A program made the translations under genes and the position numbers. 64,000 nt of DNA from an uncultured Bdellovibrio sp. (lineage in GTDB: Bacteria > Bdellovibrionota > Bdellovibrionia > Bdellovibrionales > Bdellovibrionaceae), in assembly GCA_964498705.1 (NCBI GenBank), contig CAZCHT010000003.1:960-64959 (forward strand). Direction: 5' to 3'. Positions 2,438 through 20,109 of this stretch are shown here, in pieces; position 1 is the stretch's first letter; every line of letters starts with the position of its first letter. The notes beneath the pieces are model-generated. The model was not told the origin of the DNA. It did no database searches and saw only the letters and a program-made list of their open reading frames with translations.

Positions 2438-2681
2438 GATGGTTAATCGTTGATCTTTGCCTCATCTATGTTCTTTCTATCTACAGACTCTACTGCTTAG
2501 TGTATTCCTTAACGGCGCAGACCTTAAAAATAGTGCGGTCTGTATGTTGCAAACATCACAATCTATTAACAAGAAAACTGCTAGGTCAATTTTCTTAGAG
2601 TAAATGAAAAATTTGAAATTCATCTACAACAGTTAAAACCGTATTGTTGAGCATGACAAAGTTGTCATGCTGGAGGTTTTT

Positions 2682-3032
2682 GTGAAAAAACAAAGTCTAT
2701 TCTTAGTGTTTTGCTTAATCTGTTTTCCGCTTTCTAGTTTTGCAGAAGTGTCCCAAAAAGCTTCTGAAATGAGAAAGCCTGTGTCTGAGCCACCAAGCAA
2801 GGGAGCTCAAAAGAGAGCACGGGATCAAGTGGAAGTAAGTAAAAAAGAGCTTTTAACGAAACTAAAAAACAATGATTCTCCCGAGGTCATTGGCAATGCC
2901 AAGGCTCGTGTGCAAATTGACCGAACTGGAAGCATTCGACAAGACTATCTAGATCAAGAAAAGAAAAATGAAGCCAAGAATAATAAAAAGTGTACATTGC
3001 CACCTTGTCCAGAGAAAACTGAAAATCGGTAG
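2682..3032 (+). CDS. Small secreted protein, unknown function
   Basis: GTG 2682 is preceded by GGAGG and gives MKKQSLFLVFCLICFPLSSFAEV, a classic signal peptide. The remainder is Lys/Glu-rich. The ORF track start 2667 lies inside a palindrome. Confidence 0.5.
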   Translation: MKKQSLFLVFCLICFPLSSFAEVSQKASEMRKPVSEPPSKGAQKRARDQVEVSKKELLTKLKNNDSPEVIGNAKARVQIDRTGSIRQDYLDQEKKNEAKNNKKCTLPPCPEKTENR

Positions 3033-3244
3033 TGCAAACTCTTGAGACACATAAGCCAGCTGATATGATTCACTGTCAAACCTTATGACTCCTGTTTAAA
3101 TATTCATGACAGTGATTTTACTGCGATCTCAAAATGCGACACTTTCATCCATTATACCTATCCTATCCTTTTCTAAATCGTAGTCTCAATCCTACTTAGA
3201 GCCCCTGCTTTGCACTGTCATCAGGGTGGGTGGGGGAAATTACA

Positions 3245-3976
3245 ATGGGTTCCAAATTAAAAAAATCAACGATAGTTATTTTTGTTTCAATTATATTCAG
3301 TTTAGCATATCAAAATTGCTCTCGTTCCGGTTTTATAACCCATGGTACAGATGGGGAAGAAAGTCTTTCTTCTGAGGCTCCTCCCATACTCAATGATCCG
3401 GTTACGGTCAGCTCCGCTGCCATTAGCAGTTCAGGCTCGGAATTGCCAAAGGCATCGGCCAATACAGCCTGTGAATGTGAGTTCGATTTAAAATCATATT
3501 ATAGTCAAGGCTACACAACGACCTTTTATTACGACAACGGAAAGACTTATGAACCAGATGCTGCCACCAAAGTCATGCGCCTTCCAGGAAAAATGAAAGA
3601 TCAGTTTCAAATGACTAAGGGGAACAAAATGGTTTTCTTTGTCTGTAATAAAGGGGTATTAAAAGTTTCTACCTGGGACGGAGATTCTAGTGCTATTGTC
3701 GCACAAGAACCAGTTCTTGCCGTCGCTAAAGATTGTCCAAATATCGAATGTAAATTCAAACTTGAGTCTGGTTACACAACGACTTTTGTATATGCTAATG
3801 GGAAAAGCTATGCACCTGATGCTGCGGGAAATATGACACTTCCCGGGAACTTCAATCCCTATCAGTTAAATACTTACAATTCGAATGGTAATTATATTTA
3901 TTACCAATGTGAAAAAGGGATACTAACAACACTTGATCATAACATCAGAATCATCAGCATTGCACCTGCCTATTAA
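3245..3976 (+). CDS. Secreted protein with two tandem Cys-containing ~85-aa repeats, unknown function
   Basis: ATG 3245 follows GGGGGA. It has an N-terminal hydrophobic signal (KKSTIVIFVSIIFSLAYQNCS). There is an internal duplication: CEFDLKSYYSQGYTTTFYYDNGKTYEPDAA...FVCNKGVLKVS versus CKFKLESGYTTTFVYANGKSYAPDAA...YQCEKGILTTL. Confidence 0.6.
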   Translation: MGSKLKKSTIVIFVSIIFSLAYQNCSRSGFITHGTDGEESLSSEAPPILNDPVTVSSAAISSSGSELPKASANTACECEFDLKSYYSQGYTTTFYYDNGKTYEPDAATKVMRLPGKMKDQFQMTKGNKMVFFVCNKGVLKVSTWDGDSSAIVAQEPVLAVAKDCPNIECKFKLESGYTTTFVYANGKSYAPDAAGNMTLPGNFNPYQLNTYNSNGNYIYYQCEKGILTTLDHNIRIISIAPAY

Positions 3977-4173
3977 ATACAAGCGGACAAGTTATTCCGG
4001 AGGGGCGCCGCTCACTGGGCCTAATTTTTTAATCAGACGCATGTACGTGTTGTCTCTCGATAGAACGATTCTTAATAGAACCCGTGAATAAGCTCCCCAA
4101 GATAAGGTTCTATTTTTTGTTAAGTCTCAAGCTGAGGCTTAAGATTTCCATAGTGGAAACCGACCATACATGT

Positions 4174-4503
4174 ATGGGAACAAAATTCCATGCTATATAT
4201 ATGATTGTGTTTACCCTATTGTCATCAGGCTGTACATGGAACGCTTCGCTAAATGGTTTAAGTGAATCTTCATCAGGAACAAGCGGTGATAAAGTTGGAT
4301 CAATCGGACTTGAATGTGCTGACAACACAGCGACCAGTAATACTTGTAAAGTTTCACAAGCGGGAAAGATCGTAACGTCTAGTATTAGGTTCAGGTTCAT
4401 ATCAAACGACAATGGCATCAAGTGCTTTAAGAGATGCGGGTGTTCAAGTGATTGTAAATTTGTCAGGGCAAACAATCTCGAATCAAATCACATTAGACAA
4501 TGA
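4174..4503 (+). pseudogene. Signal-peptide/lipobox-bearing N-terminal fragment, apparently the displaced 5' part of the DUF1566 gene (frameshift)
   Basis: ATG 4174 gives MGTKFHAIYMIVFTLLSSGC (signal peptide plus Cys), then Ser/Gly/Thr-rich sequence. This frame ends at 4503 after a junk-like tail. The +1 frame is open from 4376 and continues as the DUF1566 ORF. Confidence 0.4.
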
Positions 4504-5611
4504 GCAAAACACATATGCTGGTGCTAATTTGCCAACAACGGGTGGATATAATTATAGGGATATTCCAGATGTAACTAAAGATGATGACGGTCGTGATGGC
4601 ATTACTTGTAAATATGCCCCAAGACCTTCAAACGATTGTGGAACAACTCAAAATACCATCACAGCAAGAATTGCAGATTGTGTGACACAAAATCCATCAA
4701 CATCAATATGGAATGGATCTACACAATGTAACCGTGGCCAAGGGTCTTGGAAATTAGTAACAAGGCAAGGTGTTAATAAAGAAGTATGGCAAGATCAGCG
4801 GACAGGGCAACTTTGGAGTTCTGCAGTGACAGTAGACACTAATTGGTGTCAAGCCAGTGGTAATACGCAACCGGCACCAGTTTCATATTCAATGTCCTAT
4901 AATAACACATTCGGAACCCCAATAATTGGTAACGGTAGTATCGGAGCTTTAAGTGGTGGGGTTACATCTGCTGCAGGTGCGATCACGATTACCTTTACAA
5001 GTGCTACAACGTTTACTGTGTCGGGAGCTAGTTGTGGAACTGGTTCAGCAAGTGGAGCACTCACGACAACAGCTGGCTCAATAGTAACCTGGTCTAGAGC
5101 AAATTATTGTAGTTTTACTTTAACTCAAGGATCTACAAATTTTGCTGTGAATGACAAATTTGAACTTCAAAGTATTCAGGCGACAGCTTATAGCTGCGCT
5201 CCAGGGGCCGCATCAGCATTACAGCCAGCAAGTCCTATAAGCTATTGCGCAGAGGCAGCAGGTGTAAATGCATCAGCAGGCGAAAACTGGGCTTCTGGAG
5301 TTTATCTGGCTGAAAAAGGTGGTATGGGAAAGACTTCCACAGCTCAAAGTCCATCAGTAAGGTGGCGTCTGCCTACGATCGAAGATTACAAAGTTGCAGA
5401 CATAAATGGAATTAGATTTGTTTTTTCTGATATGGGAATAGCAGGAAGCAGTAGGCCTTCGATGGATGGTTCAGTCGGTGGGAATAATGAGTGGTCGTCC
5501 ACGCTATCTGCTGGATATAGAAATACCGCACTTTATTTCAGCTCGAGCGCCGGCTGGACATCAACCCATGACAGAAACCTATCCCGTTTTGCCCGGTGCG
5601 TGGGACGTTGA
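4412..5611 (+). CDS. DUF1566 (Lcl C-terminal domain)-containing secreted protein
   Basis: C-terminal WRLPTIEDYKVA and terminal ARCVGR resemble the DUF1566 signature (WRLPT..EL ... RCVR). It is Cys-rich and Thr/Ser/Gly-rich. No signal peptide is present from M4412, which supports fusion with the upstream fragment. Confidence 0.7.
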   Translation: MASSALRDAGVQVIVNLSGQTISNQITLDNEQNTYAGANLPTTGGYNYRDIPDVTKDDDGRDGITCKYAPRPSNDCGTTQNTITARIADCVTQNPSTSIWNGSTQCNRGQGSWKLVTRQGVNKEVWQDQRTGQLWSSAVTVDTNWCQASGNTQPAPVSYSMSYNNTFGTPIIGNGSIGALSGGVTSAAGAITITFTSATTFTVSGASCGTGSASGALTTTAGSIVTWSRANYCSFTLTQGSTNFAVNDKFELQSIQATAYSCAPGAASALQPASPISYCAEAAGVNASAGENWASGVYLAEKGGMGKTSTAQSPSVRWRLPTIEDYKVADINGIRFVFSDMGIAGSSRPSMDGSVGGNNEWSSTLSAGYRNTALYFSSSAGWTSTHDRNLSRFARCVGR

Positions 5612-5808
5612 TAATTTCGAATAACTTTTTGCATGCTAATTAAATCATTAATTCCAATCCTGTAGGCATTATATCAAATTTAATTCTTGTGATTTAAATT
5701 GTAGGTCACAATAGTCGTGGATCGTGTAAACAGAATCAATGTTGCTCGCAATCCCGTAAGAAAAATTCTGAATCTGATTTTTACTATTTTTACGGCTAGG
5801 GATGTTAC

Positions 5809-7068
5809 TTATTTTGATAGTATGACCAAAGGATGATGTCTTAACTCATTAGCCTGCATTTTTGATAGTTCTGGATATTCAAGAACTCGTGATGGAATTG
5901 GATCCATGATATTTGAGCTACCTTCATTCGAGTTAGTGTCGGTATAAAGATCATGAATTGTAGAGTTAATCTCATAAGTATGAGACAAGCCAAGATAGTG
6001 AAGAATTTCATGGGTTAATACTATTGCCAATTCATGCGGTGGTTGGGTAAAAGTTTCTCCAATTCCTAATATGACACCAAAGTTTTTAAAATTACTTTCT
6101 GTCAATGGTCCTGGTATTCCTGGTGAAAATCCGTAAACTCTACCATAACTTTCTAAATAGGTTTCTTTTGCTAAAAAAACATTTAATACAGGTCGTTTAG
6201 TTTGGTGGTTCTTACCAAAAAGGCTAAGAATTTGTCTATCAGAATCGACAATTAAATTGTCTGCAATTTCGGCGGTTTCATCAATTACAACTTTTACATT
6301 GGCCGGCTCTAAAATTCGATTCACGCGGGTAATTACTTCGTGAAATTCTGAATGCTTTTCATTCCATTCTCTGGCTCCGGAAAACAAGATCCGTAGTGGT
6401 AAAATAGCTGGAGCCCTTTTTGGCATTTGGGGCTTATAAGTTACTCGAATACTAACAGAGTGGTCCTTGAATTTGTCTTCGATGAGAGCTGCTATCTTGA
6501 ACGTATATCTTCCAGGTTTAATTTTGAATCCGCCACTGATCTCAGAAGTTAAAGCAAGCGAAGCAAAACCATTAAAAAACCCTGGTATCGAACGAACTGG
6601 TGATAAAAATGCAGCCATGGCATCAGGTGAATTGCCTAATAACTTTTGCAAACTCTGTTGATATTCTTTTGAGGGTGTAGATATCTTTTGCATATTTTCC
6701 ATAACTAATTCGTAACCGTCAGGATCACTAAGTGATTTAATTAAATAAATCTGTTTATCGGAACCCAGGATATTAATGTGAACACTGCCAGTACCCTTTG
6801 GAACATCTAAAGATATGGTCTCTGATGTGGAGCTTGTCATATCTATAACAAATTTTTCTTGAATGAGATTCCCTACTTGTTCTTTCGCGTAGCGATTCGA
6901 ATAGAATTTCATGCAACTAGAGTTTGTCATAGTAGCTGCTGAAGCTTTGGTATTAAATGAAAAGAAAGATAATATCATTAAAGCTATAATTGGAAACAAA
7001 GAATTACCGATCGGTAAAACAAATATTAAGATAAAGAAATAGCTTCTTTTCTCTTTAAACAAGGTCAC
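5809..7068 (-). CDS. Secreted metzincin-type zinc metalloprotease
   Basis: The HEILHYLGLSH motif matches the HExxHxxGxxH zinc-binding motif. An N-terminal hydrophobic segment is present, and a downstream NIMDP is a possible Met-turn. Confidence 0.7.
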   Translation of the reverse strand: MTLFKEKRSYFFILIFVLPIGNSLFPIIALMILSFFSFNTKASAATMTNSSCMKFYSNRYAKEQVGNLIQEKFVIDMTSSTSETISLDVPKGTGSVHINILGSDKQIYLIKSLSDPDGYELVMENMQKISTPSKEYQQSLQKLLGNSPDAMAAFLSPVRSIPGFFNGFASLALTSEISGGFKIKPGRYTFKIAALIEDKFKDHSVSIRVTYKPQMPKRAPAILPLRILFSGAREWNEKHSEFHEVITRVNRILEPANVKVVIDETAEIADNLIVDSDRQILSLFGKNHQTKRPVLNVFLAKETYLESYGRVYGFSPGIPGPLTESNFKNFGVILGIGETFTQPPHELAIVLTHEILHYLGLSHTYEINSTIHDLYTDTNSNEGSSNIMDPIPSRVLEYPELSKMQANELRHHPLVILSK

Positions 7069-7458
7069 TCCTAAGTCAAAGCTATAGATTCAATTTTATA
7101 GAATGAAATTCCATTGTCCGATAAATAAAATTGTGAGCCGATTATATCATTAGATTATGACACTTAGAAATTCTTTCCTAGCCTGCGATGCCAAGCCCAG
7201 TAAAGTTTGTAAGGGTGTCAACGTCTTAGACACTGGCCGTGGGCCAGATAGGTCACATCCCTTTCGGGCGATCGTGAAAGGGAAAGCTTGCAGCCTTGGG
7301 GGTCTTAAGACAATAAGCCTATTTTTGCTTGCTAGTGAATTAAATTAATACACCTGAGCTCAAATAGAATCTCATTTAAATTCTAAATTAAGCCATCTTT
7401 AAACTGATCGATTGGCAGAGTCTTGCATATTGAATTATCTTTATTAAAGGAGCCACTT

Positions 7459-7869
7459 ATGACTAAAACTCTTATTGCGACTATTAGTATATTTTTGGCG
7501 ATGACTTGTTTTGCAGCGGCAGGAGAAATTTCCGTTCTTCATCGCGGAGTAAATCCCAACGCCATCACAGTCAATGTTGATTATAGTATTTCACTTGGAA
7601 AAGAAACTAGTTACAGCAATAGAAATTATATAATGGACCTAGCAGATATGAATTCAAAAGTATTAGAAGCAAAAAGACAGGGACAGGTTGTCGATATTTT
7701 GATAGATAAGTCAGCCCAACGCTTCACTCTTGATGTAATTACAATGCAAGTAAGAGCCGCAACAAAAGAAGAACGAGAAAATTTGGTAACTACCACCCAA
7801 GATCAAAATTTAGCATTACAAGCTGAAATTATACAATTACGTGAAAAACTAAGAAGCCTTGGTCAATAA
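7459..7869 (+). CDS. Small secreted protein with C-terminal coiled coil, unknown function
   Basis: ATG 7459 is preceded by AAAGGAG and gives the signal peptide MTKTLIATISIFLAMTCFAAAGE. The C-terminus is heptad-like ([19 protein letters not shown]). Its last ~130 bp are duplicated at 20110-20242. Confidence 0.6.
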   Translation: MTKTLIATISIFLAMTCFAAAGEISVLHRGVNPNAITVNVDYSISLGKETSYSNRNYIMDLADMNSKVLEAKRQGQVVDILIDKSAQRFTLDVITMQVRAATKEERENLVTTTQDQNLALQAEIIQLREKLRSLGQ

Positions 7870-7915
7870 GACGATAGTTCTGCTATGAGAGCCTCAAGAG
7901 CCAGCGTTCTCTGTT
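7737..7915. repeat. Left copy of the 179-bp direct repeat (3' end of the 7459-7869 ORF plus a duplicated 50-bp 3' end of hisS)
   Basis: Aligns without gaps to 20110-20288 at a constant offset of 12373 bp. There are six mismatches (7742, 7767, 7789, 7793, 7809, 7815). Positions 7816-7915 are identical. Confidence 0.9.
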
Positions 7916-8006
7916 TCTTCAAATAAAAATTTATTTTTCAATTTGTTCATAGATCAAGGGTACATGAATAATTTAAAAAACCCGTTGATCGGTAACATAT
8001 TTAAAT

Positions 8007-8798
8007 TCAATCAAATAACTGAGGGTTCGCAGATTCTATTATTTCTTTAAAAGTTGAAAATAGTCTACTAGCCGGACCACCCCCCATTATTCTTCGATCA
8101 AAAGAAAGTAACAAGGGAATGCTTAAGGCGGCCTCAACGTTATTTTCAATAACTAGAGCTCTTTTTTCAACTTTCCCAAAAGAAAAGGTTAACGGCCAAG
8201 GCCATGTGGTCATAACAAGATCAGCTCCAGCTTTAGAAGGAGAGTTAACCCAAGCGGCGCATCCTCTATATTTTATCCAATAATAAGGACTCCAATAAGG
8301 CATATTAATCAAAATATTACTGAAGGGCCTTGGGATGTATTTTAAAACTCTCATGAATGTTTTAAATTTTGGATCATTGGCTTCATTACAATTCACAAGT
8401 GTTTGCAGTTCATTGGTTATTAAAGCTATTTTTTTTATTAGTGGCGAAGTAATGACGGCGGCATAGGCTTGTCCAGGAAGCGCCGGTAAAGATTTTTCTA
8501 CGGCTACACAAATGTCTATATTCTCAAACTGGTAGAGTCTTTTAAAGAAGGGTGGACCTAATATCGCTCGGTTAGCTTCAGGATGAAGTTTCATCGTCAT
8601 GGCCGCTGCTTTTATGACTAAGGCCGTATAGGATGGAGTTGCTTTACCTTGAGCTCGTAATAAATATCGCTGGTGATTCAAATTCTCTGCACAAGCAAGT
8701 GCGGTCATTGTAACCATATGTCCAGGTACTAAGATATCATTCATAGCCCAGGATGTTTTTTCTGCAGATGAAATGTTAATTTTGCTGAAGCTAGCCAT
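8007..8798 (-). CDS. Stand-alone 2-oxoacid dehydrogenase E2 catalytic-domain-like (CAT-fold) protein with the catalytic His replaced by Arg
   Basis: The 263-aa ORF aligns to the E2 catalytic domain only (PSYTALVIKAAAMTMKLHPEANR ... SFDRRIMGGGPASRLF versus canonical S.DHR.IDG...A.FL). It has no lipoyl or subunit-binding domains. Confidence 0.75.
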   Translation of the reverse strand: MASFSKINISSAEKTSWAMNDILVPGHMVTMTALACAENLNHQRYLLRAQGKATPSYTALVIKAAAMTMKLHPEANRAILGPPFFKRLYQFENIDICVAVEKSLPALPGQAYAAVITSPLIKKIALITNELQTLVNCNEANDPKFKTFMRVLKYIPRPFSNILINMPYWSPYYWIKYRGCAAWVNSPSKAGADLVMTTWPWPLTFSFGKVEKRALVIENNVEAALSIPLLLSFDRRIMGGGPASRLFSTFKEIIESANPQLFD

Positions 8799-8918
8799 TT
8801 AAACCTCTTTATTTGATTTATTAATGGTAACAGCGTGGGCTATTAGCTTGTGCGGTTTTGTGACTTTTTATAATTTTTTTGTTGTTGTGGGGGTAAGTTT
8901 ATAATTGAATACAAAATC

Positions 8919-9677
8919 ATGAATAATAATTGTCAATTGAGTATTAATACAAAAAGTTACGAATCTAAAGTTCAAAACATTAGTCCTGAAATGATGTTTA
9001 TGTCCAGGCAACAAAGTTATAAGAAAAATCAAAAACAAATAGAAGCCTATGGTGAACATTGGATGATAGCTTTTGCCGACTTAAAACCAGGCGAAATTGG
9101 CATAAGACATGGCCAACTGTCTATTCCTTTAAGTGGACCTTGTGGAATTCTAATAGGAACTAACTCTATTGTTGAATTTGAATTTCAAAAAACGGATATA
9201 AACTGGTATGCAATTAGCTCACTCAGTTTAAATCTACCACAATGCTTTCATGAGAAAGTTATCTTTTTTGAATGGGATAAACAAATACCTAAAAATTTTG
9301 AAACTATTTTTGACTCTATTAAATTAATGCCTAATAAAAAAGAGATAGAAATGCAACGCTACTCATCGGCTGTGGCGCTCAAAACAAAGCATTTCATAGA
9401 TAATAATTTTTCAGAAATATTGCTAATCACAGATTTAGCAAAAAAATTAAATTACTCTAGAAGTGTTATGACCAGGGAATTTACAAAAGCTTATGGAATT
9501 TCTCCGTTTGAATACCGTCAAAAAGTTCGAGTTTACAGAGCTGTTAGAGTGTTGGCAGCGGGAGCTAATGTTACTACAGCCCTTGTTGAATCAGGATTCT
9601 CATCCCAAACTCAATTTTTCCACCAATTTAAGAAACATATAGGTACTCAACCGTTTAATTATAAATATTCAAAATAA
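8919..9677 (+). CDS. AraC family transcriptional regulator (paralog A)
   Basis: The C-terminal double HTH is ITDLAKKLNYSRSVMTREFTKAYGISPFEYRQKVRVYRAV...GFSSQTQFFHQFKKHIG. It is divergent from the E2-like gene at 8007-8798. Confidence 0.85.
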   Translation: MNNNCQLSINTKSYESKVQNISPEMMFMSRQQSYKKNQKQIEAYGEHWMIAFADLKPGEIGIRHGQLSIPLSGPCGILIGTNSIVEFEFQKTDINWYAISSLSLNLPQCFHEKVIFFEWDKQIPKNFETIFDSIKLMPNKKEIEMQRYSSAVALKTKHFIDNNFSEILLITDLAKKLNYSRSVMTREFTKAYGISPFEYRQKVRVYRAVRVLAAGANVTTALVESGFSSQTQFFHQFKKHIGTQPFNYKYSK

Positions 9678-9690
9678 TACTCAAAAAAAA

Positions 9691-9713
9691 GCCCTTGTTT
9701 TTAGCAAGGGCTT
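9691..9713. terminator. Stem-loop terminator between the convergent AraC genes
   Basis: AGCCCTTG-tttttag-CAAGGGCT is flanked by A8 on the left, which reads as a T8 tail for minus-strand transcripts. Confidence 0.5.
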
Positions 9714-9789
9714 CGTGAAGTAATTTTTTTAAAACTATTTCATTAGATTAATAAGATTCAGTTTGCCTTCACTCATAAGTTTATTTTGT

Positions 9790-9806
9790 TATTTCGTCCT
9801 ATCCTC
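9790..9806 (+). repeat. 17-nt motif TATTTCGTCCTATCCTC, copy 1 (putative IS91-family element end)
   Basis: Identical 17-mers occur at 9790-9806, 11805-11821 and 17139-17155, all in the same orientation. Copies 2 and 3 sit just 3' of IS91-like transposase remnants. Confidence 0.6.
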
Positions 9807-9946
9807 AAAGAAGAAAAGTGTCATCTTGTTGGCAGCTTAATTTCAAATAATGAATTCAGCATTAAGATACTAAATACATTATTTTCAAGCTTAGGACTGA
9901 GTATTTTTTTAGTCGTCCTACTATTGAAAGGTTTATTTAAACAAGA

Positions 9947-10753
9947 TTAAATTATTCGACCCATCTGCCTATTAATTTTATATTGGTTAGGTACAGCATT
10001 TAAAATATTTTTAAAATGTACGATGAATTGGCTTGGATCAGAAAAACCAACTGCGTAAAGAGCTTCGGTAATAGTATGACCATATCTAACTTTAACTAAT
10101 GCTTCATGAATTCTAATTTTGTGTCGATATTCGACGGGTGAAATTCCATAGACTTTTGTAAAAGCCCTGGTCATCACTACTCTTGAATAATTTAATTCTT
10201 TAGCTATTGCAGAAATTTTCATCTCTTCGCGAAAGTGTAAATCAATATAGGCCTTTAATTTTTCGGCTACTGCAGACGGATAGCGCTCTTGAACAATCAC
10301 AGTCGCTTCTTTTAAACGCCCTAAAAGGTCATAAACATCTTGTTTAGTTTTTGGAATTGAAAATTCTGAGTTTGTTATAAATGTTGGGCTAGTGATATTG
10401 AATGGAATTTTAGAAATAGAGCCAATACAAGACCAGCTTAAAGGACCATCTTCTACGTGCATTTCCAATAAACTAAATGGAGGTTGAAATATTAAAGTAG
10501 GGCCATAAAGATCAACTAGTTGATTTCCACATCGCAACTTAACTCGGTCTTTTGGTAGGTTAGACAATGCAATAAACCAATCAGAAGCATAGGATTCATG
10601 ATAAATATTTTTTTTATATTGATGTGATTTTTCTGAATATAAGAGTTCATCATCAATAAGATGAACAGTAGCTTTATAATTTGATGTTGTAATAGTGGCC
10701 TCATTTTTTATTAAGAGGTCATCGTTAGGCCTTTGATCTAGTAAGCTATTCAT
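9947..10753 (-). CDS. AraC family transcriptional regulator (paralog B)
   Basis: HTH region IAKELNYSRVVMTRAFTKVYGISPVEYRHKIRIHEAL...GFSDPSQFIVHFK. The first ATG is at 10753 (MNSLLDQ), while the ORF track start 10792 is a TTG. It is divergent from the E2-like gene at 10826-11605. Confidence 0.85.
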   Translation of the reverse strand: MNSLLDQRPNDDLLIKNEATITTSNYKATVHLIDDELLYSEKSHQYKKNIYHESYASDWFIALSNLPKDRVKLRCGNQLVDLYGPTLIFQPPFSLLEMHVEDGPLSWSCIGSISKIPFNITSPTFITNSEFSIPKTKQDVYDLLGRLKEATVIVQERYPSAVAEKLKAYIDLHFREEMKISAIAKELNYSRVVMTRAFTKVYGISPVEYRHKIRIHEALVKVRYGHTITEALYAVGFSDPSQFIVHFKNILNAVPNQYKINRQMGRII

Positions 10754-10825
10754 ACATGAATAGTAGATAAGATATAAGTTACAAATCAACAAGTTTTATA
10801 AAAAATTAAGTTTCATGATTAATTT

Positions 10826-11605
10826 ATGGATAAACAAAATTATGAAATCGTTAACTCCGATAGTTTTTTTAAGGTAAATGCTTCAATTGTTGAGAATGAA
10901 ATTGATCTGAGCTCAACAGTAACCATGGTAAATCTTATAGATCTAACAAAGATTGAAGAAATACGAAGCTCATCAGTGGGCATAAAACCCAGTTACACAG
11001 TTTTTGTTGCAAAAGCTTTGGCAAAAAGCTTAGTCGATTTTCCAGAGATGAATAAAAGATTTTATAAGCCTTTTGGTTTTTTTCCTAGGGTGTTTCAAGA
11101 ATTTAAAAATGTGGATATGGCTATAGCATCTGAAGTAACGGACCCAAAGTTAGCACATGTTGCGTATATTGGTATAATGAAAGATGTGCAACATAAGACG
11201 CTGCAAGAAATTCAACAATGGCTATTAGAGTTTAGAAAAACTGAAGCAGTAGCACAATGGAAAATCTTTAGTGGAATTATTCTTAAGCTGCCAGTATTTT
11301 TATCAAAAATTATCATCAGATTGCCAGTCTATTTTCCAAGCCTGTGGGTAAAATACAGGGGAGGGGTGGCAATGATCAGCTCTCCAGCAAAGTATGGTGT
11401 TGACGGGCTTATTGCAGCCTGGAGCGCGCCAATTGGTGTCTCATTTGGTTATGTAAAAGAACGTGTCATTTCAAAAAATGGACAAATAGTTGCGGTACCC
11501 TCATTCAATTTAACTGTGAACTTTGACCGAAGAGTTTTTTCTGGCGCTCAAGGGGCCAGATTCATTGCAAGAATAAGCGAAATTTTAGAAAAAGCAGAGT
11601 ATTAA
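10826..11605 (+). CDS. Stand-alone E2 catalytic-domain-like (CAT-fold) protein with the catalytic His replaced by Arg (paralog 2)
   Basis: KPSYTVFVAKALAKSLVDFPEMNKR ... NFDRRVFSGAQGARFIARISEILE aligns with the E2 C-terminal ...FDHRVIDGADGARFI.... It is 259 aa and has no lipoyl domain. Confidence 0.8.
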   Translation: MDKQNYEIVNSDSFFKVNASIVENEIDLSSTVTMVNLIDLTKIEEIRSSSVGIKPSYTVFVAKALAKSLVDFPEMNKRFYKPFGFFPRVFQEFKNVDMAIASEVTDPKLAHVAYIGIMKDVQHKTLQEIQQWLLEFRKTEAVAQWKIFSGIILKLPVFLSKIIIRLPVYFPSLWVKYRGGVAMISSPAKYGVDGLIAAWSAPIGVSFGYVKERVISKNGQIVAVPSFNLTVNFDRRVFSGAQGARFIARISEILEKAEY

Positions 11606-11642
11606 TGTTTAAGCTGGCTGAGAAAAACGAATAACAAATTTT

Positions 11643-11821
11643 GTGTTTTTTGATTCTGAGTCTAAGAAAAAAGCACACTTCAACATCGATGTTGAAACCT
11701 GCATCAAATGCGGCGGTAAAATGAAAATTATTGCGGCCATCGAGGATCCAGAAGTGATTCGAAAAATCTTGGAGCACATGGGGCTATCACCAAAGCATGA
11801 ACAATATTTCGTCCTATCCTC
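11643..11821 (+). mobile_element. Remnant of an IS91-family (Y2 rolling-circle) transposase C-terminus plus element-end motif
   Basis: The translation ...NIDVETCIKCGGKMKIIAAIEDPEVIRKILEHMGLSPKHEQYF matches, from memory, the conserved C-terminal C..CGG.(M/L)KIIAAI...VI.KIL.HLGL block of IS91/ISCR transposases. No upstream catalytic part is present. It ends in the 17-nt motif. Confidence 0.6.
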
Positions 11822-11880
11822 GACTAGGCTTGACTTCTATGTCTGCGCTATTGCCAATAGTGATCTCCGCTTAGTAATTT

Positions 11881-12747
11881 TTAGAAAAAAAATCTTCTAT
11901 AAACCCAATCTTGAAGTATGATTCGACATTGATCTGGAAGTATTTTTTTTAAAAACCAGTTAATATGCGATTCGGTTCCAACTCTGATTCGAACTGGGAT
12001 ATTTTTTTTATTACATAATTTAATAATAGTATCAACAACAGCAGCAGGATCTTTTTCTATCTTTTTTTGAATAAATTCTAAAAATTTAGAAAACCTAATC
12101 ATCCGTTTTTCATATTGATAAAATTCATGATGAGATTCTTTAGAAACTTTAGAATTTTGTGAAAAACCGGTTTTGTAACCACCAGGTTCAATGGCACAAA
12201 CTTGAATTTTGAATATTGATAAATCATAATACAAAGCTTCAGTAAGACTATCAATAGCATGTTTTGAAGCACTATAAATTCCATAGAAAGGAAAAACATT
12301 GAATCCAACTAAACTACTAAGATTTATGATTCGACCTTGTTTTTTTCTTAGAAGTGGCAAAAGTTTTTGAATAATAAACAGGGGCGCAAAAAAATTAGTC
12401 TCGAATTGCATTCTAATTTGTTTTTCTTCTTGAAGTTCCACTGGCCCCAAAAGTCCAAAGCCTGCATTATTAATTAAAATATCAAGACCATCAGGAAAAT
12501 AATTAAAAGCCTCAATTAAGCAAGATTCTAAACTTTCTCTATTGTCTAAATGGCCATCTAATAAAATAAGTTGTTTATTGGCTATTTGAGTTGAAAATTC
12601 AGAAAAAATGTTTTTTCCACGAATCATGCCACCTCTTATTACAGCGACAACAAAATAATTCTGTTCGAGTAATTTTTTAGTAACCTGAAAGCCAAAACCA
12701 CTGGAAACACCTGTTATAAAAACACTTTTTTTTGTAATTTGATACAT
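11881..12747 (-). CDS. Short-chain dehydrogenase/reductase (SDR) family oxidoreductase
   Basis: Motifs VFITGVSSGFGF (TGxxxGxG), NNAG and YSASKHAI (YxxxK). ATG 12747 is preceded by GAAAGG. Confidence 0.85.
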   Translation of the reverse strand: MYQITKKSVFITGVSSGFGFQVTKKLLEQNYFVVAVIRGGMIRGKNIFSEFSTQIANKQLILLDGHLDNRESLESCLIEAFNYFPDGLDILINNAGFGLLGPVELQEEKQIRMQFETNFFAPLFIIQKLLPLLRKKQGRIINLSSLVGFNVFPFYGIYSASKHAIDSLTEALYYDLSIFKIQVCAIEPGGYKTGFSQNSKVSKESHHEFYQYEKRMIRFSKFLEFIQKKIEKDPAAVVDTIIKLCNKKNIPVRIRVGTESHINWFLKKILPDQCRIILQDWVYRRFFF

Positions 12748-12785
12748 AGAAAAACCTTTCAAGGGTATACTGTTCAAAATATTTG

Positions 12786-13415
12786 CTATTTAATTTTTAC
12801 AGCGGGAACTCCAGCCCAGACCTCACCAGTTTTAATAATAGAATTTTTTGTGACTAAAGACATGGCGCCTACGATAGCATTATCTTCAATGACAACACCT
12901 GACAATACGACACTATTGGCTCCTATTGTAACGTTTTTCCCAATAGTAATTTTTTTATGGCCAAATTTACGTCCCTCTTGGTAATGCGGTACTAGAAGTG
13001 CTCTATTTCCAACAAAACTACCTTCTCTAATAACAATTAAATGAGGATCAAATAATAATCCTGCTGAAAAACTTTGTAGACTCATTTTTCCACCGAAAAG
13101 ACGATTAGTAAATGGACTTAAATATACAGGAATAATATTGATGTTTTTTAGCGGATGAAAATAAGTTAACCAAAAACACAGATTAATCATCCAAATTGTT
13201 TCCGCTCTGCTTCCTTCTTTAAGATCTCCTTCAGGTATTGGAATTAAAAAAAGGATAATTCTGTATACCAAAACATTGATTAATAAAAATATACTAATCA
13301 AATAAAAAACATTTGTTTCAAAACATTTCTGTTCTGTTAACAATTTGGTTAATACAAAGACAATTAATTGTAGCAATATAAAAATAAAAAGTGGTAATGG
13401 TCTTAGCTTTCTCAT
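12786..13415 (-). CDS. Membrane-anchored hexapeptide-repeat (left-handed beta-helix) acyltransferase
   Basis: It has N-terminal hydrophobic helices. The C-terminal LbH repeats are ITIGKNVTIGANSVVLSGVVIEDNAIVGAMSLV...GEVWAGVPAVKIK, typical of WcaF/Maa-like O-acetyltransferases. Confidence 0.75.
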   Translation of the reverse strand: MRKLRPLPLFIFILLQLIVFVLTKLLTEQKCFETNVFYLISIFLLINVLVYRIILFLIPIPEGDLKEGSRAETIWMINLCFWLTYFHPLKNINIIPVYLSPFTNRLFGGKMSLQSFSAGLLFDPHLIVIREGSFVGNRALLVPHYQEGRKFGHKKITIGKNVTIGANSVVLSGVVIEDNAIVGAMSLVTKNSIIKTGEVWAGVPAVKIK

Positions 13416-13511
13416 ACAGAAAATATAAGATGATCACTTTTTTATTATTGGCGTTTTGTGACTTCTTTATCCAAAGCACCTAAAAACTGGACTATAAACG
13501 TACTTGAGTGT

Positions 13512-14279
13512 TTAAATTCTATTTTTATTAAATGGTGAGTATTTTTTTGGTGTCAGTTTAAAATGTTTTTTAAACTGATAAATAAATTGTTTGGGGTCAC
13601 TATAGCCAATATTTTCAGATATTTCAGTAATAGGAAATCCTAAGTTCATAAGAGCTAGGGCTTCAAAAATTCTTAACTTATGGCGATATTCTATAGGCGT
13701 CAGGTTGTAGGATTTTTTAAAAGATCTGCTTAATACTTCCCTTGAAGTTTTCAACTCATTTGCTATTTGATAAATTTTTTCGTTTTTTAAGTGGTAGGTG
13801 TTTTCAATAATTGCTTTTAGCTTTTCAGCTATTGCAGAAACGACTATCTGTTGTTTTAATTCTTCACCATTTTTAAACTCAGAGATAAGATTCATTACTT
13901 GGTTTCTGTTTTTAGGTAATGAACATGTTTTTTCCTGATCTATTATCATTGGATTTTTATAAGAATTATCAAGAGGCCAACAAGAAGTTATGGTTGTAAA
14001 ATCAATTTTAATCCCACTTGGTACTACCGTTTCTAATAAAGAAAAAGGAGGACAGAAAATGATTTTATCTGATTCAATAGCAAGATACTTATTCTCAGAT
14101 CTTATAAGTAAGCCTAAACCTTCTGCATTATTAATAAATAAAATACACCAGCTAGATCCAAAACAATCTATGGATACTTTATTTTTTCTTATTTGACTAT
14201 TATAGTTTATGAAAAAATGATCATCTATAATTTTATTACGTTGTGTATAGCTTGCTGTTTGAATTAGATAATCTTTCAT
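13512..14279 (-). CDS. AraC family transcriptional regulator (paralog C)
   Basis: HTH region IANELKTSREVLSRSFKKSYNLTPIEYRHKLRIFEAL...GYSDPKQFIYQFKKHF. The N-terminal region is similar to paralogs A and B (SAIAEKLKAIIE). Confidence 0.85.
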   Translation of the reverse strand: MKDYLIQTASYTQRNKIIDDHFFINYNSQIRKNKVSIDCFGSSWCILFINNAEGLGLLIRSENKYLAIESDKIIFCPPFSLLETVVPSGIKIDFTTITSCWPLDNSYKNPMIIDQEKTCSLPKNRNQVMNLISEFKNGEELKQQIVVSAIAEKLKAIIENTYHLKNEKIYQIANELKTSREVLSRSFKKSYNLTPIEYRHKLRIFEALALMNLGFPITEISENIGYSDPKQFIYQFKKHFKLTPKKYSPFNKNRI

Positions 14280-14573
14280 TTCAAAATTTCAGATTTTGGT
14301 ATTACGTAAAATATATCTAAGAAAGGCACCATATCCTTTTAGTATATTTTTTTCGTTTAGAAGTCCATGTTTTTTATAAGCTTAACTGATCACTCACTCG
14401 ATAAAATATATTGTGAAAATCAATCCCAATTTGCTGGATAACACTTTGGCACACAGACGGCCCAAGTTATCTAGAATAATTTTTTTCAAATGTAGGTTTT
14501 ATGAAAATGACAAATTTGGCCGAATCTTACGGATACCCTAAGTCAAATGATAGAATTATGAGTACTGAGATAG

Positions 14574-15365
14574 CTAATCATTTGGTTTCATAACTTGCTT
14601 TTTATGAGCAATTATATGTTTTGGATTTACTCCTAGCCAGCTTTTAAACTGTCTAAAAAAATTACTGTACTCTTCAAAGCCAGATTCGTAACAGGCGTCA
14701 ATAAGTGGTTTATCTTTCATGCTGAGTTCTTTAACAGCCGCATTTAACTTAAGCCGGTTCAGATATTCATTGGGGTTTACTCTATAGCATTTTTTAAATA
14801 GATGAGTAAGGCTGCTATAATTCATTTCAAGTTCCTCACAAAAATCTTTAATTTTTCTTCCAGTTAAATAGTTTTCATCAATATGATGTTTTAACTTTAA
14901 TGCTAGTTTTGAATTGTTAAATTCTGTTGGCAGTATAGCTAAATATGTTTTTTGATTTTCAATATGTTTTAATAGTTCTATGTCTGATTGAAAATAAGAT
15001 TCAGCACTCCAAGGTATAACAAAGCCATTATTTCTTAATTTAGTCGGTAGCTCTATCTCGCCACGGAAAGCTGTCCATCGGATAATGCCAGGAGATAGTT
15101 TCCAATGAATTATATGTTTTGACGGTAAAAAGATCGCAATAGGGCTTTGAAATAACTTTTCATCCTCAGGAAATTGTATACGGATTAAATTGTCATTGGT
15201 CTCTGAAATAAATAAAAACCAGGAGCTTGGAAAAACATCAAAGCTGGACCTTTCTTGTGGGATACATTCAACTCTCTCAAGATACTGAAACTGGGGATTT
15301 ACCTGTAAGACATGAGTTGTATAATTCTTAAAGTTTACTGAATAGCTATCCATTGTATCCCACAT
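14574..15365 (-). CDS. AraC family transcriptional regulator (paralog D, most divergent)
   Basis: HTH region FCEELEMNYSSLTHLFKKCYRVNPNEYLNRLKLNAAV...GFEEYSNFFRQFKSWLG. It is divergent from the GMC oxidoreductase gene. Confidence 0.8.
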   Translation of the reverse strand: MWDTMDSYSVNFKNYTTHVLQVNPQFQYLERVECIPQERSSFDVFPSSWFLFISETNDNLIRIQFPEDEKLFQSPIAIFLPSKHIIHWKLSPGIIRWTAFRGEIELPTKLRNNGFVIPWSAESYFQSDIELLKHIENQKTYLAILPTEFNNSKLALKLKHHIDENYLTGRKIKDFCEELEMNYSSLTHLFKKCYRVNPNEYLNRLKLNAAVKELSMKDKPLIDACYESGFEEYSNFFRQFKSWLGVNPKHIIAHKKQVMKPND

Positions 15366-15435
15366 GTTTTATTTATAATCATAAAACTTCAATTTTTGCA
15401 TAGTTGCATCCCTAAAACCCACTTAGCATTAAATC

Positions 15436-17034
15436 ATGGATCAAGAGATAAGTCAGGTTGAAAATAAAATTTGGGATAACGTGATTATTGGTACTGGAAT
15501 GGGGGCGGCAGCGCTGGGATATGCTTTGGCTAAAGCAGGGCAAAGCGTTTTGTTTTGTGAAAAAGGACTACTTCGAGATGGAAATAAATCTAATTTAATT
15601 GGTTTTGCTGAGAAAAATCTTTCTAATTCTTTGGATATTGAGTCACGAAAAGAAATTTTTAATAAAATGGGTAGGTTTTGTGACCCCCTTTTTGAAGCTA
15701 AGGGCGTTGGAAAGAAGTCAAAGATTCAGAAACTATTTCCAATGTTAGGTGTTGGCGTCGGTGGATCTTCGGCTATTTATGGGATGGTCCTTGAAAGATT
15801 TTTTCCATATGATTTTGAAAATAATGATTGGCCAATAAAATTTTCAGATTTAGAGCCATTTTATCGTCAAGCTGAAAGTTTATTTGAAGTTCATGGAGAA
15901 CCAGATCCTCTTAAATTTGAGCAAAACTTTTCTTATATAAATCGCAACTATCAAGAAGTTCATCCAGTAAATGATGTGCTTATAAAATACTTGAAAAAAA
16001 ATAGATATCATCCGTATCGGCTTCCACTTGCGAACAAAAAAATTAATGGTTGTAATACTTGCCAAGGTTTTCTGTGTAATAAGAATTGCAAAAATGATGC
16101 TTGGAATATTTTAATACAGCCAGCTTTGAAATTACCTTTTTCAAAGCTTTTAGTCGAAGCAGAGGTGATATCACTTGAAGCTAATTCAGAACAAGTTCAT
16201 CTGGCTAATATGAAAATGAACAATAAAAATTTTAAGATCAAAGGAAAACGATTTATTCTAGGTGCGGGGGCAATAAATACTCCAAAAATTTTATTACAAT
16301 CAAAATCTTTGTATCATCCTGATGGGATTGGAAATCATTATTCTGTTGTTGGAAAATTTTTGATGAGACATCTGGTGGATCTATATGCTCTGAATTTGAA
16401 AAAGTCTTATGGACAAACAGGAAGTGTGAAAGAGTTTGGAATTAATGATTTTTATGCTTTTGAAAACTTTAAGTTTGGAAATATTCAGTCTTTTGGAGCC
16501 TTACCTGAAGAGGATCTTATAGCTCGTGATTTGATTTTTAAGCTCACGCAAAATAAAAAAAGTTTAAGTTCGTTATCAGTGCAAACTTTTTTACCTATGG
16601 TAAAAAAAATCATCAAATACATAACTCAACCTTCAACTTTGTTAGCGGCAACGATGGAGGATGAGCCTCTGGCTGAAAATTCTATTTATTTTAATGAAGT
16701 AAATGAGCTGTATTTAAGATATCATATTAGTTCTAGGGACCAAGAAAAACTAAAACTTTTTAGAGGTCATATTTTAGAACTGTTTAAACCTTTTAGCCCT
16801 CGGATTATTAAAATGGCAGAGTCTAATGAAATGTTAGGGCATATTTGTGGAACATGTAGAATGGGCCGTGATCCAAGAAAAAGTGTTATAGATCAATACA
16901 ATAAGGTCCATGGATTGAAGAATCTTTATATTGTAGATTCATCTTTTCTACCAACAAGTGGAGGAACTAATCCTGCTTTAACTTTAGTTGCAAATAGTTT
17001 AAGAGTTGCAGATCATTTGACAAAAAATCAGTGA
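15436..17034 (+). CDS. GMC family FAD-dependent oxidoreductase
   Basis: The N-terminal FAD fold is DNVIIGTGMGAAALGYALAKAGQSVLFCEKG. It has a Cys-rich insert CNTCQGFLCNKNCKND. The C-terminal GMC motif is GTCRMGRDPRKSVIDQYNKVHGLKNLYIVDSSFLPTSGGTNP. Confidence 0.85.
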   Translation: MDQEISQVENKIWDNVIIGTGMGAAALGYALAKAGQSVLFCEKGLLRDGNKSNLIGFAEKNLSNSLDIESRKEIFNKMGRFCDPLFEAKGVGKKSKIQKLFPMLGVGVGGSSAIYGMVLERFFPYDFENNDWPIKFSDLEPFYRQAESLFEVHGEPDPLKFEQNFSYINRNYQEVHPVNDVLIKYLKKNRYHPYRLPLANKKINGCNTCQGFLCNKNCKNDAWNILIQPALKLPFSKLLVEAEVISLEANSEQVHLANMKMNNKNFKIKGKRFILGAGAINTPKILLQSKSLYHPDGIGNHYSVVGKFLMRHLVDLYALNLKKSYGQTGSVKEFGINDFYAFENFKFGNIQSFGALPEEDLIARDLIFKLTQNKKSLSSLSVQTFLPMVKKIIKYITQPSTLLAATMEDEPLAENSIYFNEVNELYLRYHISSRDQEKLKLFRGHILELFKPFSPRIIKMAESNEMLGHICGTCRMGRDPRKSVIDQYNKVHGLKNLYIVDSSFLPTSGGTNPALTLVANSLRVADHLTKNQ

Positions 17035-17040
17035 TTTTTC

Positions 17041-17155
17041 TGGCCCACCAAAGCATGAACAATACTTCCAGCAGCACTTCGAGATGAACATCCCTCAGTA
17101 AATCAAAACCTAGATGTTAGACTTGAACAATTCGGCCTTATTTCGTCCTATCCTC
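17041..17155 (+). mobile_element. Second IS91-family transposase 3' remnant plus element-end motif
   Basis: CACCAAAGCATGAACAATA(C/T)TTC is shared with 11789-11810. Here the reading frame continues PPKHEQYFQQHFEMNIPQ* and the 17-nt motif follows at 17139-17155. The 11.8-kb copy lacks the intervening ~88 bp. Confidence 0.55.
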
Positions 17156-17184
17156 TCGAGGTGGAGTTTGTACAATTAGTTCAA

Positions 17185-17330
17185 CTGCCTAATACGGTGT
17201 TGATATGCTGGTTGCTGCATGGAGTTGACCGATTAGGATCTCATTTAATCTTACTCTAAATTTTGACAGAAGAATAGTTTCTGGCGCTCAAGGAGCGAAA
17301 TTGATAGCCCGCATTTCAGAAATTCTATAG
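17185..17330 (+). pseudogene. Decayed 3' fragment of a third E2 catalytic-domain-like gene
   Basis: The translation VDMLVAAWS*PIRISFNLTLNFDRRIVSGAQGAKLIARISEIL* aligns to the C-terminus of the 10826-11605 product. It has an in-frame TGA at 17226-17228, an internal deletion of about 19 codons and no 5' part. Confidence 0.8.
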
Positions 17331-17427
17331 AATGGCGCATTCTAAGAATTAACTTCAAATTCTAGTTTACAATATAAATAAATCCATAAACACTGATCGC
17401 AATAAAGTACTTTGCTGAGGTGTTCAT

Positions 17428-19119: not shown

Positions 19120-19130
19120 TTTTAAAGATA

Positions 19131-19847: not shown

Positions 19848-20109
19848 AAATTGACCTCAACTTCTATATTCGAAATTAAGGCCATTGCCGAAACGAACCT
19901 ATTCTAGCTTAAGAACCAACAACTGACTGATAAAACTACACAAGTTCAAAATTTGTCTTAATAAATGCGAAATGGACGAATTGCTTTACTAGCTTTCCTA
20001 TCCGAGTAGACATTCTTTTGAAGAGGAATTATTCCTGCCAAAGCGGCATTGAAATTCAATGGGGGCTTAGGTGAATAAATAGGTCAGCCCATGCCTTCAC
20101 TCTGGACGC

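Follow-up and report, generated by a model that had tools for sequence, protein, structure and literature searches.

The two open reading frames (ORFs) described here, p1 and p2, encode proteins that correspond to only the catalytic core of the E2 acyltransferases of 2-oxoacid dehydrogenase complexes, and that carry an arginine in place of the catalytic histidine. They lie in a 64,000-nucleotide stretch of DNA from an uncultured Bdellovibrio sp. (assembly GCA_964498705.1, contig CAZCHT010000003.1, positions 960 to 64,959 of the forward strand), the whole of which is referred to below as the window. The replacement of His by Arg is maintained and is not a product of local decay, and we think it rather likely that p1 and p2 are working, selected members of a clade of stand-alone E2 cores with a retooled ligand-binding or catalytic pocket. 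The two genes and a decayed third copy are located as follows:

8007..8798, (-) strand: p1, stand-alone E2-core-like protein of 263 amino acids (aa); PF00198, E 1.4e-11
10826..11605, (+) strand: p2, stand-alone E2-core-like protein of 259 aa; PF00198, E 8.6e-16
17136..17327, (+) strand: E2-like pseudogene fragment of the p2 type; tblastn, 52% identity to p2, E 2e-18

Both ORFs were found where an earlier reading, made from the sequence alone, had placed them; that sequence-only reading had left unstated that p1 is on the (-) strand. The start of p1 is preceded by an AAGAGG ribosome-binding site, and the two proteins are 30% identical over their full length. PF00198 is the sole Pfam domain in each (cutoff 23 bits). 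The Pfam scan detected no lipoyl or peripheral-subunit-binding domain in either protein, the p2 model consists of one domain, and at 263 and 259 aa the proteins have no room for such domains. The claim that p1 and p2 comprise the E2 catalytic domain without its usual companions was thus borne out. Structure prediction, which had been proposed at the outset, gave a confident AlphaFold2 (ColabFold) monomer model of p2 with one compact domain (pLDDT 93.7, pTM 0.91). When this model was compared with the PDB using Foldseek, the best matches were all E2 catalytic cores, including those of E. coli, M. tuberculosis and human (TM 0.7-0.8, E ~1e-16, 14-21% identity), so that the fold is that of an E2 core. 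The decayed third copy is also real: it contains two in-frame stops and an internal deletion of ~20 aa, its nucleotide identity to the 3′ end of p2 is 73-78%, and it keeps the motif NFDRRIVSG, with an AGA codon for the Arg at 17268-17270.

In place of the canonical DHRxxDG, the motif reads DRRIMGG in p1 and DRRVFSG in p2. Searches of the PDB sequences with phmmer aligned FDRRV of p2 with FDHRV of M. tuberculosis E2b, and FDRRI of p1 with YDHQV/IDHRI of other E2 chains. Across the phmmer and BLASTP alignments the catalytic His column was occupied by Arg in p1, p2 and the pseudogene. Profile and pairwise alignments therefore place Arg, and no alternative His, at the catalytic position, and DRR is present in the third copy as in both intact ones, as had been reported. 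The further claim that the Asp-Gly of the motif is lost holds for the Asp, which is Gly in p1 and Ser in p2 and the pseudogene, but not for the final Gly, which is retained and is nearly invariant across the family. In p1 the second catalytic residue has changed as well, with Asn standing where the TxSN loop has Ser/Thr; the Ser loop of p1, VNSPSKAG, is a variant typical of its subclade.

Both intact genes are under purifying selection. Comparison of p2 with orthologues at 93% and 89% identity gave a dN/dS of 0.04-0.07 (dS ~0.9), and comparison of p1 with its P0241 orthologue (71% identity) gave a pN of 0.18 and a pS of 0.75, which is saturated. The Arg is fixed well beyond the island that contains the two genes, as seen in three differently selected sets of homologues. 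Among 93 sequences (91 database homologues of p2, together with p1 and p2) the motif was D-R-R in 87 and D-H-R in none; Arg occupied the His column in 65 of 66 genomic copies from 55 loci of named genomes, which had been retrieved by a peptide pattern outside the DRR motif; and it was present in 146 of 157 near-full-length family members. The codons CGC, CGG, CGA, CGT and AGA are all used for it within the family, indicating that the residue has been held through synonymous turnover. The SSPAKYG and DRR..G loops, which made up the former active site, are among the most conserved columns of the family. These findings uphold the proposal of the sequence-only reading that the Arg is kept for a non-canonical function and did not arise by decay. 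Departures from DRR occur in small subclades (P0044, P0056, P0065 and P0067; P0091, P0138, P0141 and P0158); one subclade reads DVR or DAR, with a small hydrophobic residue replacing the Arg, and another reads H-R-E or Q-R-E, with the Arg kept and its neighbours altered.

Members of the family are found in Bdellovibrionota, Planctomycetota, Myxococcota, Acidobacteriota, Geobacter/Trichloromonas (Desulfuromonadales), Chromatiaceae and many Betaproteobacteria, among them Nitrosospira, Dechloromonas, Sulfuricella, Zoogloea and Aromatoleum. Those closest to the window proteins, at 53-93% identity, are from Bdellovibrionota. An exhaustive profile search returned ~119 clusters (50% identity) at E <= 1e-30, and at lower profile scores it brought up stand-alone proteins that are about as long but have DHRxxDG in its fully canonical form. 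When p2 was searched against plasmids with tblastn, only haloarchaeal canonical E2 genes were found. The sources label family members generically as '2-oxo acid dehydrogenase subunit E2', and no NCBIfam model covers the family, the E2p, E2o and E2b equivalogs scoring 16-59 bits against cutoffs of 347-878.

A neighbour-joining tree rooted on a canonical stand-alone DHRxxDG protein, which is a simple distance tree with no support values, consists of a basal grade with His or Gln followed by one large Arg crown. The window proteins fall in different old subclades of this crown: p1 in one characterised by 'VNSP...DRRIMGG' and p2 in the Bdellovibrionota subclade 'ISSP...DRR..SG', with Arg235 encoded by CGA in both (8094-8096 in p1, 11528-11530 in p2). 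They are thus not recent paralogs of the E2 of a complex but represent two old subclades of a separate stand-alone family. Comparison of 13 basal His sequences with 147 Arg sequences showed that the crown has fixed His235Arg, W174, P187 of the Ser loop, W199 and P202, all of which are rare among the basal sequences, whereas S186, P156, G179, G191, G208, R213, D234, R236 and G240 are common to both. p2 carries all of the crown residues, namely W174, P187, W199, P202 and the (S/N)SP(A/S)K(Y/A)G loop. As judged from these alignments, the site is remodelled in a coordinated way and then frozen. We also considered Glu103 and Lys189 as replacement catalytic residues of the Arg clade; this idea was rejected, since the motif table shows E103 and K189 to be common to base and crown and hence already present in the basal His-bearing relatives.

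Two unusual members of the family deserve mention here. An Acidobacteriota metagenome-assembled genome (MAG), L018, has four E2-like copies in a row (2641-10469), and the copy at 7103-7879 has His in the catalytic column, encoded by CAC where its neighbours have CGC, with Thr in the Asp column; this looks like a secondary reversion. The metagenomic protein P0092 (852 aa) consists of three tandem E2-like domains with the motifs DRR, DRG and DRR, so that Arg is present in all three, and the consensus SSPAKYG loop is found only in the middle domain; it is possible that P0092 is a covalent pseudo-trimer with unequal sites.

The basal His-bearing relative P0214 (DHRVVDG) is encoded in a cassette together with KAS III, an FkbH-like protein, an acyl carrier protein (ACP), an alpha/beta-hydrolase and a methyltransferase. 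This arrangement matches the tetronate 'glycerate-utilisation operon', whose acyltransferase is a homologue of E2 components (PMC5819245, PMC7489565, PMC4979870). The tetronate acyltransferases Agg4, QmnD3, ChlD3 and AbmA4 are ~280 aa long, AbmA4 having 280 aa (PMC5819245), and they acetylate a hydroxymethyl group, after which the alpha/beta-hydrolase-fold protein Agg5 can eliminate acetate, a sequence demonstrated in vitro for Agg4/Agg5 (PMC5819245, PMC7489565, PMC4979870). The alignment of p2 with P0214 covers 239 aa (27% identity, E 1e-17) and places FDRRV on FDHRV; it spans ~25 extra helical residues (p2 ~143-177) that the Pfam E2 model matches in neither protein, and the two also have E103, S186, K189 and P156 in common. 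The alignment, the insert and the cassette suggest that the nearest characterised relatives are small-molecule O-acyltransferases and not complex subunits, namely the His-bearing, stand-alone tetronate-pathway O-acetyltransferases of the Agg4/ChlD3/AbmA4 type. The window proteins resemble Agg4, QmnD3, ChlD3 and AbmA4 in being stand-alone E2 catalytic domains of ~260-280 aa outside dehydrogenase complexes. The Agg4-type enzymes, however, keep DHRxxDG and use acetyl-CoA to acetylate a hydroxyl, whereas the window proteins have DRRxx(G/S)G together with P187, W174, W199 and P202. Genes for FkbH, ACP, FabH-like and Agg5 proteins are absent from the island in the window. An alpha/beta-hydrolase beside the homologue in L067 was examined as an Agg5-type partner and rejected, as it is unrelated to the hydrolase of the cassette.

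With the E2 cores of dehydrogenase complexes, p1 and p2 share the Pfam family and fold, the D and R that flank the His position, the GG that precedes the Ser loop and the closing G. They differ from these cores in having no lipoyl or E3/E1-binding domains, no catalytic His and an insertion of ~25 aa, and in being only 14-21% identical to them. No E1 or E3 gene was found among the annotated ORFs at 202-25558 of the window, which covers ~10 kb around the genes and agrees with what had been noted before, and none recurs in 56 related loci. p1 and p2 are not subunits of 2-oxoacid dehydrogenase complexes.

The genes next to the E2-like genes at these 56 loci were classified by reference within 6 kb, and tblastn was also used. 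The recurrent neighbours are:

36/56 loci: GT1 glycosyltransferase (UDPGT / EryCIII-like_C / MGT-type)
15-18/56 loci: ThiF and/or nitroreductase
14/56 loci: PEP-CTERM protein above the NCBIfam cutoff for flocculation protein PepA
12/56 loci: PrsT-like tetratricopeptide-repeat protein
11/56 loci: FtsX permeases of the LolCE/MacB type, accompanied by an ABC ATPase and a DUF1302 outer-membrane protein
10/56 loci: FeeM-type synthase (NAS) of N-acyl amino acids
7/56 loci: NAD-dependent epimerase
4/56 loci: hexapeptide transferase
3/56 loci: AraC regulator

The search for homologues and their neighbourhoods that the sequence-only reading had suggested thus showed that the usual partner is a GT1 in NAS/PEP-CTERM loci, and not AraC alone. 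The GT1 gene is mostly immediately 5′ of the E2-like gene on the same strand; in Geobacter hydrogenophilus, a p1-subclade member starts 8 nucleotides past the stop codon of GT1, and two FeeM genes come after it. Nitrosospira multiformis (L041, 8001-8813) and G. hydrogenophilus (P0327) are among the organisms with GT1-linked orthologues. Two fusions link the partners directly, an E2-like~GT1~methyltransferase protein of 1032 aa in the Acidobacteriota genome L018 (2641-5739) and a metagenomic GT1~nitroreductase~E2-like protein of 1107 aa, P0097, in which the domain order is unlike that of the L018 fusion; apparent fusions at L010, L023, L031, L047 and L048 were not confirmed. The best score of the GT1 partner, below the cutoff, was to the 'activator-dependent' glycosyltransferase model TIGR04516, and it also matches EryCIII-like_C. 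The Arg-clade genes of Betaproteobacteria, Geobacter and Planctomycetota are situated within PEP-CTERM/exosortase-associated NAS loci, between GT1 and PepA or FeeM. FeeM-type synthases have been linked to PEP-CTERM/exosortase systems, and a ThiF-family (TcdA-like) enzyme together with an oxidoreductase has been proposed to convert N-acyl tyrosine to N-acyl dehydrotyrosine (PMC7293339); pepA and prsT are required for flocculation (PMC9850573). The reports on the NAS-exosortase link and on the role of pepA/prsT in flocculation (PMC7293339, PMC11072679, PMC9850573) do not mention the E2-like gene.

Two of these neighbourhoods are particularly extensive. A block shared by betaproteobacterial loci (L041, L037, L040, L043, L045, L058 and others) contains an ABC ATPase, a DUF1302 outer-membrane protein and two LolCE-like FtsX permeases, along with GT1, E2-like, PepA, ThiF~nitroreductase, FeeM and PrsT genes, and has the look of a unit that both makes and exports a lipid product, next to the floc-formation genes. 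In a low-GC Pseudomonadota MAG (L053, 8055-9068), an operon begins with AraC, GT1 and an E2-like gene with the motif NRT; next come the genes for a protein of the PP-loop type, weakly similar to WbuX amidotransferase, and for an epimerase, FeeM, ThiF and a nitroreductase. This operon links the type of AraC regulator found in the window to the full GT1/NAS pathway.

In the window, p1 and p2 each form a divergent pair with an AraC gene, as had been described. The remaining features of the island are:

8799..8918, no strand assigned (.): divergent intergenic region between p1 and AraC 1, presumed promoter/operator; from the sequence, the pair recurring in L062-L064, L067/L068 and L071/L072
8919..9677, (+) strand: AraC-family regulator 1, divergent from p1; HTH_18 / HTH_AraC
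9947..10792, (-) strand: AraC-family regulator 2, divergent from p2; HTH_18 / HTH_AraC, likely true start ATG 10753, with the intergenic region to p2 at 10754-10825
11643..11921, (+) strand: IS91-family transposase remnant (C-terminal part), 92-aa ORF just downstream of p2; tblastn vs plasmids, 50-58% to IS91/ISVsa3
11881..12777, (-) strand: short-chain dehydrogenase/reductase (SDR) oxidoreductase, convergent with p2; adh_short E 5.6e-37
12786..13415, (-) strand: hexapeptide-repeat acyltransferase with a hydrophobic N-terminal half; Hexapep
13512..14279, (-) strand: AraC-family regulator 3, on the strand of the hexapeptide transferase and SDR genes and upstream of both
14574..15365, (-) strand: AraC-family regulator 4, divergent from the GMC oxidoreductase
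15436..17034, (+) strand: GMC-family flavin oxidoreductase; GMC_oxred_N/C

The island extends over ~5800-20000, with a GC content of 0.29-0.36 against ~0.41, and lies between housekeeping genes for DHQ synthase (1364-2437) and HisRS (20236-21477). Each of the four AraC paralogs stands by an enzyme gene, namely p1, p2, the hexapeptide transferase and SDR pair, and GMC, and their N-terminal sensor halves (~150 aa) have no Pfam match. The pairing with AraC is conserved: an orthologue 64% identical to AraC 1 adjoins the p1 orthologue in L071 (omega ~0.11), and homologues of AraC 2 adjoin the p2 orthologues in L004, L005 and L060. Divergent AraC/E2-like pairs with unrelated flanks occur in L004, L005 and L060 for the p2 type and in L062-L064, L067/68 and L071/72 for the p1 type, and this recurrence makes the pair a portable two-gene module. 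Homologues of GT1, FeeM/NAS, ThiF, PEP-CTERM and exosortase proteins were not found in the window, and GT1 is generally absent from the E2-like loci of Bdellovibrionota, in which the system is reduced to the portable AraC-plus-E2-like module, sometimes with an SDR.

The other enzymes of the island also have counterparts beside E2-like genes elsewhere. The window SDR is 31% identical (E 2e-38) to an SDR convergent with the E2-like gene in L067; the hexapeptide transferase is 38% identical (E 5e-40) to one adjoining the E2-like gene in Aromatoleum evansii, a pairing also seen in L022 and L052; and the GMC protein has 39% identity across 545 aa (E 1e-100) with the one encoded after an E2-like copy of L018. 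The best NCBIfam similarity of the hexapeptide transferase, below threshold, is to the C-terminal domain of Pls/PosA-type non-ribosomal peptide synthetases (NRPSs), TIGR02353. Pfam was silent on the IS91 remnant ORF at 11643-11921. A 34-nucleotide motif within the remnant (11788-11821) is partly repeated after AraC 1 (9789-9806) and recurs, split, before the pseudogene (17046-17068 and 17138-17155); the recurrence of this IS91-associated repeat suggests that the third E2-like copy arose by duplication mediated by the insertion sequence and subsequently decayed. At the island edge, ORFs at 4412-5611 (+) and 5809-7068 (-) have no Pfam match, and the latter contains a HEILHYLGLSH stretch reminiscent of a zinc-metalloprotease motif. 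Scans of the whole window for tRNAs and Rfam families gave no match, while promoter and terminator consensus scans of the island performed no better than on shuffled sequence and identified no AraC operator.

With its catalytic His permanently replaced by Arg, the clade probably has a different job from that of complex E2 proteins, in small-molecule or lipid tailoring, and its chemistry would be either that of a retooled ligand-binding or catalytic site or that of a non-catalytic partner. We propose that the clade branched from stand-alone His-bearing E2-like proteins and that, at its base, the general-base His was replaced by Arg and the supporting Asp by Ala, Gly or Ser, while a Pro entered the Ser loop; W174, W199 and P202 would have become fixed at the same stage, after which the site was frozen. 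The protein would still be a trimer with a tunnel at the subunit interfaces, with which the natural three-domain fusion P0092, carrying Arg in all three domains, is consistent. A permanent positive charge at the site where His formerly activated a thiol or hydroxyl argues against ordinary general-base acyl transfer, and would suit a ligand with an anionic group such as a carboxylate or phosphate; the fixed Arg235-Arg236 pair in the tunnel may bind such a group on a lipidic small molecule. Candidate ligands are the products of the neighbouring FeeM and ThiF enzymes: N-acyl amino acids, whose carboxylate is free, and, by analogy, their adenylates or azlactones. N6-lipoyl-lysine, the ligand that the ancestral fold binds natively, is likewise an amino acid with an N-acyl group. 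The helical insert (~143-177) is unusually hydrophobic (KD19 = 1.73) and might hold the acyl chain or lipid or touch the membrane. The E2-like protein would then carry out a tailoring or substrate-handling step beside GT1 on lipids of the N-acyl-amino-acid type. In Bdellovibrionota, including the window, it would act as the product of a single gene, each under its own AraC sensor, near SDR, hexapeptide acyltransferase and GMC enzymes.

Several points weigh against this proposal. The orientation of Arg235 into the tunnel and the shape of the tunnel are assumed from the canonical E2 fold, the branching order comes from a distance tree that lacks support values, and the connection between P0214 and Agg4 is based on gene order and annotation rather than on aligning Agg4 itself. 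As a general base for acyl transfer, Arg is poorly suited. A few subclades have no Arg (DVR, DAR) or have changed neighbours (HRE), and the window contains no GT1, FeeM or ThiF, so that a pathway deduced from other phyla may not apply to it.

The main alternative is that catalysis has been lost altogether and that the protein is a pseudoenzyme, serving as a trimeric scaffold or activator for GT1 and other tailoring enzymes. We regard this as a possible but clearly less likely explanation. It would account for p1 having neither canonical catalytic residue (His replaced by Arg and Ser by Asn), for the tight coupling to GT1, including two independent fusions, for the similarity of the GT1 partner to the 'activator-dependent' model TIGR04516 (below cutoff) and to EryCIII-like_C, and for the drift of two of the three Ser loops in the triple-domain fusion P0092. 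Such a role would have parallels in the P450-like EryCII/DesVIII helpers of EryCIII-type GT1 enzymes, in the X-domain of glycopeptide NRPSs and in E3BP. E3BP, or protein X, of the eukaryotic pyruvate dehydrogenase complex is homologous to the E2 core but no longer has the catalytic His, and its retained role is non-catalytic and structural; it differs, however, in retaining lipoyl and subunit-binding domains, which the Pfam scan found to be absent from p1 and p2, in being built into the E2 core, in having a substitution other than Arg and in having no link to glycosyltransferases or AraC regulators. In the X-domain Arg takes the place of the catalytic His in HHxxxDG, and the inactive domain serves to recruit tailoring enzymes (P450s), which, if the parallel holds, would be a precedent for a His-to-Arg change that turned a CAT-fold catalyst into a partner protein. 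The X-domain nevertheless belongs to the Condensation family and not to PF00198, is monomeric and lies within a megasynthase, and is related to the window proteins at the superfamily level only. The SSPAKYG and DRR..G loops are the most conserved parts of the family and the Arg is fixed, which is unusual for a relaxed, dead site, and the Bdellovibrionota gene occurs with a regulator only and no GT1, implying that it either functions independently there or has a partner encoded at a distance. It is because the active-site loops are the best conserved in the family that we favour a retooled pocket over a mere scaffold.

A second alternative is that the E2-like protein is an inducible modifying or resistance enzyme, with the AraC regulator sensing a xenobiotic, prey-derived or signalling lipid that the E2-like protein inactivates or sequesters in the manner of chloramphenicol acetyltransferase (CAT), itself a trimeric CAT-fold protein. 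The portability of the two-gene AraC/E2-like module, with flanks that are unrelated between genomes, the grouping, in an AT-rich accessory island and next to an IS91 remnant, of four modules that each join AraC to an enzyme, and the predatory lifestyle of the host lineage within Bdellovibrionota are all in keeping with this idea. Against it, scans with NCBIfam and PADLOC gave no match to resistance or defence models, the His needed for CAT-like acetylation is missing, there is no clue to a substrate, and the context of the family in other phyla is biosynthetic; on balance we consider it improbable.

The last two alternatives are effectively excluded. That p1 and p2 are decaying relics or mis-called ORFs sharing a mutation by descent might be suggested by the obvious pseudogene at 17136-17327 next to insertion sequence debris in an AT-rich region, but is contradicted by an omega of ~0.05 for the intact genes, by full-length frames conserved across phyla, by synonymous turnover at the Arg codon and by the confident fold prediction. 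Similarly, the PF00198 match and E2-core fold would be expected of genuine E2 subunits with the lipoyl-carrier, E1 and E3 encoded elsewhere, but there is next to no chance of this given the missing lipoyl and peripheral-subunit-binding domains and catalytic His, equivalog scores far under the cutoffs, no E1 or E3 nearby, a consistently non-metabolic context across the 56 loci and an insert in common with the cassette-type stand-alone protein P0214.

A more far-reaching scheme can be imagined, which we offer as a long shot. In it the clade would be a catalytically retooled CAT-fold enzyme. The Arg-Arg pair, together with the family-specific Glu103 and Lys189, might handle an activated carboxylate, such as an N-acyl-aminoacyl adenylate or azlactone formed by ThiF-nitroreductase from the FeeM product, and couple it to a GT1 glycoside; the resulting glyco-lipoamino acid might leave the cell through the LolCE-like ABC system and serve the PEP-CTERM/exosortase machinery, for instance as the long-sought anchor or acceptor for sorted proteins. 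The modules of Bdellovibrionota could in that case be salvaged ones that act on prey lipids.

Stand-alone E2-like acyltransferases and CAT-fold pseudoenzymes are already known, and the loss of His in CAT-fold proteins has precedents. A search of the literature on NAS/PEP-CTERM systems, floc formation and stand-alone E2 proteins or pseudoenzymes turned up no description of the Arg clade, and the stieleriacine cluster table has no E2-like annotation. A large His-to-Arg clade with a remodelled and frozen site and systematic coupling to GT1 in NAS/PEP-CTERM loci seems to be undescribed so far.

The E2/CAT fold is the textbook case of His-based acyl transfer. That a whole clade spanning at least six phyla has exchanged this His for Arg and then held the site under strong selection points either to new chemistry on an old scaffold or to a new class of bacterial pseudoenzyme partner. 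The annotation of its members as '2-oxo acid dehydrogenase subunit E2' misleads metabolic reconstruction. The coupling and fusion to GT1 provide a testable handle on the products of NAS/PEP-CTERM loci, a question that bears on how wastewater bacteria, nitrifiers, Geobacter and planctomycetes form flocs and biofilms. In the window itself, the results show the AT-rich island, with its four modules of AraC plus enzyme, to be a coherent and selected set of genes and not junk.

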